The position numbers were made by a program. From assembly GCF_053078305.1 (NCBI RefSeq), contig NZ_CP166879.1: a stretch of 64,000 nt of DNA, one strand, 5' to 3'. Position 1 is the stretch's first letter, and each line of letters starts with the position of its first letter. Positions 24,001-27,000 of the stretch are shown piece after piece.

Positions 24001-27000
24001 AATGTGCGGCTTCCGGTAATGGTGTCCTTTTTCACGGGTTTTGGGCCGATATAGACAACGGCAATTTTCTCACTCATATAATTCCCCGGATAAAAAGCCC
24101 GCATGACGCGGGCCGGAAGGTTTTAATCAGTATTCCACCACGGTATAACGCAGCAGAACATTCAGGGTGCCGGTTGCAGCGGCAGTCTTAATGGTGACAG
24201 TAACCAGCTCCCCGTCACGCTGTGTGGTGTACGGCTCCACTGGCACATATCTGGCAAATTTTGCAGAAACAGCTTCGCTGTTATCGATGAGAGCATGCTC
24301 ACCGGACTTAATGCTGACGGTTGCAGTACCCAGACCACCCGTTGAAACCAGCTGGAGTGAGTTGATACGGATGCCCACTGGCAGTGAGAGAAGATGAATA
24401 ACACTGTCCGCTTCCGCAGCATTCACCGTAAATACGCCTTCTGCCACCGACTCATTACCGTGCGTACCCGTATAGACCCGTTCACTCAGTGACGGGGCAA
24501 GGATAGTCTTTGCCATAATTAATGACTCCTGAAAAAGCCGGGCGAAAACCCGGCATGGGGAAAGGAAAAAATCAGAGCTTCACTGCTGTATCAACGGCAA
24601 TCACGCCGTGATCCTGCATCTTGCCGCTCTTCTCGGGGAAACGGATTTTTTTCAGACCGTTGATCCAGCTGATTGCTATCTCAGTACGGTTATCCATATC
24701 CGTTTTCTTCTCAACCATGTTGAAGTGACCGCCCGCCTTCTGACCGTAAGCATTTGCCAGCGCCTGAGCCCCCAGTAACATGGCGCGGTCAATATTGGTT
24801 GCAGCAGCGACCTCTTTCGTGGTTGCCGTCAGGTTATTCTCTGATACCAGAACCTTTGACCCCTGATAGAAACGGATCGGCATACCCGCATACTTACGAA
24901 CCAGGATATTGCGCCACATCGCACATTCACCTTTGAACAGCGGATGATTAAAACCTTTTGCACGGTTCACGGCACGAACCATCATCTGGTTCCAGTCCTT
25001 ACCGGACGTCGAGGTGTACCAGTCATTCCACTGACGCGGCGTGACGTACAGGACGTAATATGGATCTTCTCCGTGAAGTTCATCACCGGACAGACGAACC
25101 GGCTGTAACGGATGCGCCATTTCGTCAATGAACAGGGAGAGATTGTCCACCAGGCCAATAGAAAAAATATCTGCCGCTTCAATCTGCTCAAAGCTTGTCG
25201 CATCACCGCCAAAAAAGTGACGGTCATGTGTCGGAGGCAGTACATCGTTGATCATGATTTTTTTGAATTCAGGGTGCTCCGCTGTCGGCAGAATAGTGTC
25301 GTCAGCAACAAAATCACCACGAGCTCCGGCAAGATGCACTATCGCACACTGGTCCTGCAGGTCATTAAAGTACGTCCCCAGAAGCGTTCTGGCAGAGGAT
25401 GCCAGGTTAAACTTCGTGCGCTGCTGACTCATACGTCCGCCTGCATCCACCAGGTGACGTCCCTGATTGATTTTCAGGGAGAAGTCAGCATGGCTGAGAT
25501 CCTCACCACGACCTTCAACACGCTCATCTCCCATCGTCGGACGTTTTGAGAGCTTGTGCATGATGCTGAAGGTCACTTCATCACCGGCCTGTTTGTTAAG
25601 GTCTGTGATACGGACAACCGGCGCACCTGCGCTGGTCTGCTTCGTGCTTTTCTTGTCCGGCGAAACCGCTTTTGGCGCTTCCTGCTGTTCAGTAAGGATA
25701 TTAACCATCGAGCGGTTGCGGTTGGCAGCAGTAAAAAGCGCCACCTGATACAGCTTATTCGCATGGGCTGATGTTACAGTCGTCATTACTTCAGTACTCC
25801 TTCAGTAAGTTACCCGAGCTTCTCCAGAAGTGCGTCTATTTCAGCATTCGTCATACCGCGCATAATCGCCTCTGCCTCTGAATGCGAAGCGCCAAGTAAC
25901 CGTTCAAAATTATCACCGGTTCCGACGGAGGCCGTGGTGCCTAAATCTGACGGGGAAGCTGGTACTGCCTGCTCCTGTTCAGCGGTCTTCACTTTCTCTT
26001 CCGCCGTTTTCCGGATATCCGTTTTGTCTGCCTTGTTGTCAGCAGACGACTCACTGACTTCACCGAAAGCAACCTGCGTACGACGGGCCACTTCAGCGAA
26101 ACGTTCAGTGAGCGTTTTGTCTTTCCATGCGGGGTCATTCTGGAGCTTCCCGTCGATGGATACAGCAACCGAGAAGCGATCCGGATCGGACTCCTGCCAC
26201 GTTTTCAGCACCGGCACGGCATTCATCGCATCAAGAACCGGTGATAAATCCTCACCACCATTACCTTCTGCCTGCTGTGTTGATTGCTGAACACGGGACT
26301 GGAGATAGTTATTTTTACGGATGAGCGAAGCCACCGCGTCACCAATTTCCGGATACATCTCCCTGATACGGGCAATCTGCTCATCAGAAATTTTTTCGTT
26401 TTCCGGTAACGGTGTGGGCTTCATACCGGCCTGGTGGATCTGAGACGTCAGCAGTTCCACCCTGCGTTTTTCTTCAGCTATCTGCCCACGAAGAAGTGCG
26501 GCTTCCTGTTCGGCCCGTTGCTTACCGGAACGTTCAGCCTCAAGGACTTCATAGGGAATGACGTGTTTACCGTCGCGGGTGAGCACCCCCTTCGCTTCCG
26601 GCTCCTTCACGTCCTGCGTCTGCTCCACACTGGCATCCGGCGTCGGTGCCACATTGTTATCGCCCGTCTGAGTCTGTGTTTCCTCATCCGCATGTTTTTC
26701 CGTGGTATCTTCCGTCACGACGTCCTGTGCGTGACTGTCAATATCCACATCCCCAAGTCCTTCCAGCATTTTTTCCAGTTGTTCCGGGGTTTCTTCACCC
26801 GTAAATTCAAAATCCATAAATAACTCCGCATGGTCTGTTTATCGGACAGATCCGAATGGTTGAGTAAATAAGGCTTATCGCTGCCCCCGCGAATAAGCGC
26901 ACCGCTCCCGGAACGCTTACCTCCGGAAACAAAAAACCCCGTACGATGACGGGGTTCAGTTGAAGCCAGAGTTTTCAGAGCGACATTTCATTCATCCGCT

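Follow-up and report, generated by a model that had tools for sequence, protein, structure and literature searches.

Does the late operon of a Shiga toxin (Stx) prophage carry transcription terminators between its head genes and, if so, what would they do in a transcript that is expected to be made by an antiterminated RNA polymerase? The question is raised by a stretch of 64,000 nucleotides (nt) of contig NZ_CP166879.1 (RefSeq assembly GCF_053078305.1), referred to here as the window, in which a first-pass annotation had noted strong hairpin-plus-T-run terminators after the portal, coat and decoration-like genes and before a giant gene. With Shigella phage 75/02 Stx, VT2-Sakai, 933W and upwards of 180 further Stx-converting phages, the segment 23500..27500 shares 99.3-99.6% identity, which identifies the window as holding a short-tailed lambdoid Stx prophage of the subfamily Sepvirinae. 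The late genes of this prophage are all on the minus strand, co-oriented downstream of the antiterminator gene Q; features described below are on this strand unless the plus strand is indicated.

The hairpins after the three head genes were found where they had been predicted. T_portal (26957..26934) has the sequence GAACCCCGTCATCGTACGGGGTTT followed by TTTGTTT and folds into a 9-bp stem with a 6-nt loop (folding free energy, dG, -13.0); its T-run, TTTTTTGTTT, reaches 26925. It begins 17 nt past the portal stop codon, and the next start codon is 116 nt away. T_coat (24554..24537; GCCGGGTTTTCGCCCGGC followed by TTTTT; 7-bp stem; dG -12.7) begins 17 nt past the coat stop codon. Its T-run (24536..24532) merges into the AGGAG ribosome-binding site (RBS; 24530..24526) of the next gene, 6 nt past the stem, and the ATG of that gene is 20 nt from the stem. 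T_deco (24114..24096; GGCCCGCGTCATGCGGGCT followed by TTTTAT; dG -13.2) lies after the 129-aa cement gene; it begins 12 nt past the stop codon, and the next ATG, at 24077, is 18 nt from the stem. The fourth hairpin, T_giant (8911..8892; GCCCGGCCATTGTGCCGGGT followed by TTTTTT; dG -13.1), comes after a 421-aa gene (10209..8944) and has a run of 7 T directly before the GGAG of the giant gene, whose ATG at 8874 is 17 nt from the stem. A terminator before the giant gene thus does exist, 15 kb away from the interval to which the first-pass annotation had assigned it.

The four hairpins are alike in build, with stems of 7-9 bp containing 5-6 G-C pairs, loops of 4-6 nt, dG values between -12.7 and -13.2, and 5-7 consecutive T directly 3' of, or overlapping, the last stem pair. 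All are on the late strand, 12-32 nt 3' of a stop codon. Three of the sites have a T-run that merges with the following RBS and a stem 17-20 nt away from the following start codon; T_portal, with its 116 nt to the next start, falls outside the proposed spacing of 10-20 nt. Since the hairpins have at most a 6-nt loop word in common they are independent of each other, and the idea that they might constitute a repeat family was dropped.

Such sites are far more frequent than expected by chance. A strict definition (an uninterrupted stem of 7 bp or more, a dG of -10 or stronger, and a T-run directly 3' of the stem) yielded 11 sites on the late strand between 487 and 40600, compared with 0.24 +/- 0.5 (maximum 2) in 100 dinucleotide-preserving shuffles, an approximately 45-fold excess. 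Ten of the 11 are intergenic, even though intergenic DNA makes up only 9.6% of the region (P ~7e-10).

The hairpins are also conserved. In PhiR5_2, PhiR12_3 and Stx2_EH2011, whose neighbouring coding sequences are 8-17% diverged from the window, the three head-gene hairpins have no stem changes; the changes are confined to the loops, and the T-runs and RBSs are unchanged. More distant relatives, found in IMG/VR by their scaffold-like protein (41-52% identity), have different canonical terminators at both the post-coat and the post-cement junction, and variants of these terminators keep their pairing through compensatory changes (GCAGACTTCGGTCTGC versus GCAGGCTTCGGCCTGC, also GCAGGCTTCGGTCTGC). 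The place of T_portal is taken in other clades by non-homologous terminators. The comparison was extended to phages of the same coat family, down to 26% coat identity, with hosts in Vibrio, Achromobacter, Pseudomonas, Burkholderia, Ralstonia, Agrobacterium, Klebsiella and Erwinia. A GC-rich hairpin was present after the cement homologue in all ten lineages, where it was usually among the three most stable hairpins of an 11-kb region, and after the coat gene in eight of them. In every enterobacterial clade the canonical T-run is retained directly 3' of the stem. The invariant stems, the recurrence of hairpins of unrelated sequence at the same positions and the compensatory changes argue that the hairpins are under selection. 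Taken together, the sites display everything by which an intrinsic terminator is recognized in sequence: anatomy (a GC-rich stem-loop with a U-run), intergenic and strand-specific placement, excess over chance, and positional conservation with compensatory changes.

In three of the IMG/VR relatives (L085, L086 and L089) the post-cement terminator has lost its T-run and lies in a 185-nt gap. An insert of ~110 nt is located 3' of the hairpin, with a strong closed stem GAAGGG...CCCTTC and an inner hairpin of dG ~-18 to -19.5, and Rfam finds no match for this insert.

The labels that the first-pass annotation had given to the genes around the hairpins were confirmed by family matches and by structure prediction. 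The portal gene (26975..29119, 714 aa) matches PF16510 P22_portal (E 4e-126) and phrog_156, and the major capsid protein gene (24572..25786, 404 aa) matches PF13252 Phage_capsid_3 (E 3e-88) and phrog_334. Between them is a gene for a highly charged 335-aa protein (25810..26817; phrog_479, no assigned function) with no Pfam or PDB match and no detectable similarity to any solved or annotated protein; its place between portal and coat and its composition suggest a scaffold-like function. The product of the 129-aa gene (24127..24516; phrog_486, virion structural protein) was assigned as cement or decoration protein on the basis of its AlphaFold2 model, a jellyroll with a pLDDT of 91. The top Foldseek match of the model was the Ralstonia phage GP4 capsid chain 8h89_J (TMq 0.73), and other top matches were the cement proteins of the Helicobacter phages KHP40 and KHP30 and the capsid of cyanophage Pam1. 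Because the modeled 129-aa protein folds like capsid cement proteins, the genes bracketed by the hairpins appear to be the high-copy ones.

How would terminators at these places fit into late transcription? The Q gene (40209..40583) matches PF06530 (E 6e-51), which represents the Q21/Q933W family (bioRxiv 10.1101/651190). Downstream of Q come a promoter-like site (40161..40134) and two terminators, 40103..40084 and 39899..39877, the second of which is tR'-like; the identical hairpin in VT2-Sakai fits the published 3' end of StxS (PMC7547250). Q-loaded RNA polymerase processively ignores terminators across tens of kilobases (bioRxiv 10.1101/651190), and the natural expectation would be that Q-modified polymerase reads through the head-gene hairpins and unmodified polymerase is arrested at them. 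The suggestion that the terminators belong to Q-antiterminated late transcription is thus partly supported, by the Q gene, the promoter-like site and terminators upstream and by the co-oriented late genes. In the literature we found no report on measured late-region terminators in Stx phages or on Q-dependent readthrough at head-gene terminators.

Taking these observations together, we consider it likely that the late transcript carries true Rho-independent terminator hairpins, and that selection holds them at set junctions around the genes of the scaffold-like, coat and cement block. Termination itself, its dependence on Q and any effect on RNA stability or protein ratios we infer from the sequence. 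In the mechanism that we propose, late transcription would initiate at pR' just downstream of Q, Q-loaded RNA polymerase would pass the hairpins, and polymerase without Q would halt at them, so that the late genes would stay silent in the lysogen. During the lytic cycle each hairpin would be either internal to an mRNA or at its 3' end; such ends could arise through residual termination, or through an endonucleolytic cut in the U-rich spacer and trimming by 3' exonucleases that stops at the stem. In both cases the coat and cement message 5' of the hairpin would be protected and less RNA would extend into the low-copy head-completion and tail genes. T_portal, which always precedes a structured leader (see below), would probably mark where this head-gene RNA unit begins at its 5' side. 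Differential expression of the structural genes set by terminators is plausible for T_coat and T_deco, which end the block whose products are required in hundreds of copies, and would agree with the reports on T7 and LUZ7 (see below); it fails to account for T_portal, located before the block.

Several observations weigh against this interpretation. The genes 3' of T_portal (scaffold-like, coat and cement) encode the proteins required in the greatest numbers; a step-down at this point would oppose the stoichiometry, and a simple step-down function does not fit T_portal. In Klebsiella phage SJM3 and Erwinia phage PEp14 the gap between coat and cement genes is 12 nt, with no hairpin in it and a single hairpin after the pair. 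As these phages keep a hairpin after the pair, the most deeply conserved element appears to be the hairpin that closes the high-copy head-gene block. Several hairpins at these junctions in GC-rich relatives, among them Achromobacter, Burkholderia, Ralstonia and Pseudomonas phages, lack the T-run; this points towards a conserved function in stabilization or processing rather than in termination, of which protection of RNA 3' ends would be at least one component. That role is thus probably linked to the head-gene block and to RNA 3' ends or RNA stability, and not specifically to a lambdoid Q. The GenBank record of 933W has terminators annotated near pR', the tRNA genes and stx, and none in the structural region. 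Finally, at the Sakai NC_002695.1 equivalents of the four terminators (~1278510, 1280909, 1281349 and 1294106), where prophage Sp5 has hairpins identical to those of the window, no Hfq-bound small RNA (sRNA) is listed in the data set obtained with uninduced cells (PMC4104026 supplement).

Other explanations account for parts of these data. If the hairpins were pure insulators, they would only stop polymerases without Q, such as those reading through from moron promoters or starting spuriously, keeping the structural genes off in the lysogen and having no effect once Q acts. The canonical anatomy and full T-runs in the Escherichia coli phages agree with this, as do the other late-strand terminators that flank morons (stx/STnc100, lom) and the disregard of terminators by Q-loaded complexes (bioRxiv 10.1101/651190); insulation would also account for a terminator upstream of the scaffold-like and coat genes. 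However, it leaves both the conserved post-coat and post-cement positions in distant phages and the T-less hairpins unexplained, and gives no reason why most other late-gene junctions have no terminator. We therefore regard pure insulation as unlikely. The T-less hairpins are readily understood if the elements act solely as RNA stabilizers or processing boundaries, that is, as barriers to 3' exonucleases which, along with the leader, carve out a long-lived scaffold-coat-cement mRNA, termination being incidental. A conserved bipartite hairpin of ~22 bp just upstream of the head block fits this explanation too, whereas the T-run kept directly 3' of the stem in every enterobacterial clade does not, because a pure stabilizer needs none; on balance an exclusive role in stabilization is possible but doubtful.

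It seems very unlikely that the hairpins terminate small regulatory RNAs, for instance Hfq-binding ones, that originate from the portal, coat and cement mRNAs at their 3' ends. Many Hfq-bound sRNAs are indeed encoded by Stx prophages, and tR' yields StxS (PMC7547250, PMC4104026); at two of the hairpins there are sub-threshold Rfam matches, to isrJ and isrK. These matches score far below the gathering thresholds (22.7 vs 37 and 18.7 vs 50), however, and cover little beyond the terminator stem. What lies 5' of each hairpin is either coding sequence or little conserved (close relatives differ at 7 of the 17 nt preceding T_portal), and the lack of listed Hfq crosslinking (CRAC, crosslinking and analysis of cDNA) sRNAs at the Sakai coordinates, already mentioned, speaks against this origin as well. 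Even less credible is that the hairpins arose by chance or persist neutrally, for example as relics of moron boundaries, and do nothing at present. Vibrio relatives carry accessory genes in the portal/scaffold junction (L005, 1797..3567; L006, 3290..3586; L007, 2592..3583; annotated as Thoeris anti-defence, endolysin and DUF2829), which makes the junction occupied by T_portal a moron insertion point, and morons typically bring their own terminators. But neutrality is hard to reconcile with the excess of the sites over the shuffled sequences, with stems that are invariant beside diverged genes, or with the recurrence at the same junctions of unrelated hairpins showing compensatory changes.

The 116 nt between T_portal and the start codon of the scaffold-like gene (26818..26933) form a conserved structured leader, which is preceded by a terminator in every clade. 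Its main feature is a bipartite hairpin consisting of P1 (7 bp, 26930..26924 with 26889..26883) and P2 (11 bp, 26919..26909 with 26904..26894) separated by a 4x4 internal loop; P2 is capped by a tetraloop (26908..26905) that is often GCAA among the different versions. A nearly invariant block, GGGCAGCGATAAGCC (26886..26872), follows, and the segment GGGCAGCGAUAAGCC of the leader is invariant. A small hairpin (26850..26846 with 26838..26834) is located just before the GGAG RBS (26827..26824) of the scaffold-like gene. Many of the pairs are G-U, which means that this fold is available only on the late-transcript strand.

Conservation of the leader exceeds that of its surroundings. In PhiR5_2, PhiR12_3 and Stx2_EH2011 it shows 0-2 changes in 114 nt where the flanking genes differ by 8-17%, in contrast to the changes just upstream of T_portal mentioned above. 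Even in relatives whose scaffold-like protein has no more than 41-52% identity, the nucleotide sequence of the leader can still be recognized, and it was also found in Enterobacterales prophages, namely those of Pectobacterium, Brenneria, Serratia, Yersinia and Citrobacter. The exact leader pattern matched 93 DNA stretches in IMG/VR, at least one of them spurious. In an alignment of 26 distinct sequences 95.7% of the cells were paired, compared with 26-49% when the partners were slid, and compensatory changes occurred at seven pairs, six of which are in P1 and P2. With a covariance model the leader of the window scored 115 bits, and a weak but exactly positioned homologue was detected before the scaffold-like homologue of Vibrio phage 1F273_PE002. 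No gathering-level Rfam match was obtained at the hairpins or the leader, either with the whole window, with 23500..27500 at E <=5 or with five related loci. Matches to the leader region, exact over the stretch compared, were also seen in a 477-nt contig of Terrisporobacter mayombei and a 1716-nt contig of Xanthomonas pisi; both contigs have low coverage and most likely represent assembly contamination.

What the leader might do can be narrowed down to some extent. A sigma-70 scan of the late strand between T_portal and the scaffold-like gene found no promoter, and when the conserved block was read by eye as a promoter for sigma-54 or sigma-28, neither the spacing nor the conservation agreed. 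A terminator/antiterminator switch with GCTTATTCGC pairing to GCGATAAGC was also rejected: an A-to-C change present in all other clades breaks this pairing and is not compensated, and P1 and P2 covary. A long-range partner of the invariant block was searched for, and complement matches were no commoner than expected by chance. RNase III sites of T7 and of lambda late RNA, the latter cited in PMC7547250, have a geometry that resembles the bipartite hairpin, and the leader has the approximately two helical turns of duplex and the internal loop characteristic of such sites. On the other hand, hardly any sequence variation is seen in the internal loop, in the five lower P2 pairs (TAAGC/GCTTA) or in the 15-nt single-stranded block that follows, and since RNase III does not require such invariance, a specific binding partner is suggested. 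The leader may serve as a processing site, as an operator controlling translation of the scaffold-like and coat genes or, with lower probability, as an antitermination RNA acting in cis.

We tentatively suggest that T_portal and the leader may together make up one undescribed cis-regulatory RNA unit of the 933W-type head module, which with the coat and cement hairpins would delimit and control a discrete scaffold-coat-cement mRNA. The unit would act as a site of processing or as an operator bound by a protein; that it is a put-like element modifying the polymerase seems less likely. If this is true, it would set the output of capsid proteins independently of the rest of the Q-driven late transcript.

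A gene for a CsrA-like RNA-binding regulator is annotated in the head cluster of four of five distant relatives that were compared, namely Pseudomonas phage Epa33, Burkholderia phage DC1, Ralstonia phage Cimandef and Klebsiella phage SJM3, the fifth being Erwinia phage PEp14. It is directly 5' of the coat gene in DC1 and SJM3, separated from it by one small gene in Cimandef, and located 3' of the coat gene in Epa33. For the PEp14 gene directly 5' of the coat gene, the annotation gives only a similarity to BcepIL02 gp49, the homologue that is listed for the DC1 regulator gene too. These annotations hint at post-transcriptional control of capsid genes in this group of phages.

Two gene starts in the records of 933W (L002, 18284 and 31026) and VT2-Sakai (L203, 18325 and 31067) are inside or overlap terminator hairpins. 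The ATGs in question correspond to window positions 24104 and 8913 and are annotated as the starts of the gene after the cement gene and of the giant gene. ATGs preceded by an RBS are present 9 and 13 codons further downstream (window 24077 and 8874), and for the first of these two genes the shorter start is the one given in the PhiR5_2 record. The starts at 24104 and 8913 look like misannotations. For the giant gene (487..8874), which encodes a polyvalent virion protein of 2795 aa with LPD5, LPD38, LPD1 and MuF_C domains, we infer the start at ATG 8874 from the GGAG RBS and from how long the homologous gene is annotated to be in a related phage record.

The late genes are arranged in the order Q, stxA/B, an esterase gene, lysis genes, terminase genes, portal, scaffold-like, coat and the 129-aa gene, then head-completion and tail genes, several morons and the gene for the 2795-aa polyvalent protein. 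Terminators other than the head-gene ones are distributed along this operon. Those at 38152..38133 and 37878..37857 form the 3' ends of two STnc100-like sRNA copies after stxB, one is located before the holin gene (35092..35064), one after lom (14114..14096), and a further canonical late-strand terminator is at 11649..11630. The terminator at 12001..11974 is bidirectional (11977..11998 on the plus strand) and lies inside an annotated gp63-like open reading frame (12087..11701); either the start of this frame is wrong or the hairpin sits in coding sequence. A strong terminator on the plus strand (19056..19075; CGGGGGTGGTGATACCCCCG followed by CTTTTTT) is oriented against the late operon; it is in a 478-nt gap between genes of the tail-fibre region and would stop antisense transcription. 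Rfam identified the two tandem STnc100-family copies 3' of stxB (37847..38060 and 38122..38333), each terminating at a late-strand terminator, and elsewhere in the prophage isrK and C4 antisense RNA (57728..57910, plus strand) and an sRNA-Xcc1 match (48757..48845, plus strand). Between lom and the gp63-like gene there are a gene for a 408-aa YadA-like adhesin with anchor and head-repeat domains (12188..13414) and a hok/MokW-like toxin gene (13772..13906). They have no counterpart at the equivalent position of the phage 75/02 Stx record and look like late-region morons.

The terminators themselves are of little import: through them a known design of lambdoid phages is extended to the Stx phages, which are of medical importance and whose reference records leave the terminators unannotated. 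The more useful result is that the same two junctions are repeatedly occupied by hairpins with unrelated sequences in phages of Gamma-, Beta- and Alphaproteobacteria, which indicates that the high-copy head-gene block behaves as a conserved unit of expression at the RNA level. Beside the terminators, the structured leader is the less ordinary feature and a new candidate regulatory RNA in Stx phages. If it controls the synthesis of scaffold and coat proteins, it would provide a handle on phage particle production, which in these phages is coupled to toxin release.

Compared with known systems, the Q region has the layout of lambdoid Q antitermination of the Q21/Q933W type, with Q followed by a promoter-like site and tR'-like terminators and with stx and the late genes on one strand, and nothing sets it apart from that of known Stx phages. 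The leader resembles RNase III hairpins of the T7 R1.1 type and those of lambda late RNA in that it would likewise form a bipartite helix of ~22 bp between genes of a polycistronic message; it differs from them by its near-invariant internal loop, lower P2 pairs and 15-nt block. As in P22, the gene order is terminase, portal, scaffold, coat, and the portal is P22-like, but the portal-scaffold gap of P22 is only 13 nt and has no such leader. In P22 the synthesis of the scaffold was reportedly found by Casjens and Adams and by Wyckoff and Casjens, both in 1985, to be controlled post-transcriptionally (autoregulation); both papers are cited in PMC5529062.

In T7 a terminator with partial readthrough, T-phi, follows gene 10 and lowers downstream expression. 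In the N4-like phage LUZ7, ONT-cappable-seq revealed transcript starts and ends around the coat gene and widespread partial readthrough, and inefficient terminators tune structural-gene expression (10.1101/2022.03.18.484859). The prophage likewise has a terminator directly after the major capsid gene; however, T7 and LUZ7 use RNA polymerases of their own and promoters before the coat gene, whereas a Q-modified host polymerase is expected here.

The closest parallels are in P22, lambda and HK97. The RefSeq record of P22 annotates a stem_loop (6102..6119) after coat gene 5 as putative, with a location like that in phage HK97 and lambda, and the scan that detected the sites in the prophage also recovers this P22 hairpin and the lambda hairpins 6099..6116 (after D) and 7163..7180 (after E). 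A hairpin after the coat or decoration gene is thus of a kind already known from these phages, and T_coat belongs to it, being a stem-loop soon after the coat stop codon and before the next structural gene. In all of them, as here, a GC-rich hairpin with a T-rich tail begins a few nucleotides past the stop codon and runs into the next RBS of a Q-type late operon. The terminators are accordingly ordinary members of a known design. The head module that they serve is, in contrast, unrelated to that of lambda and HK97, with a PF13252 coat protein (termed "N4-family major capsid protein" in one related record) and a jellyroll cement protein, and to the design of P22, lambda and HK97 the prophage adds a terminator before the giant gene and a post-portal terminator coupled to a structured leader.

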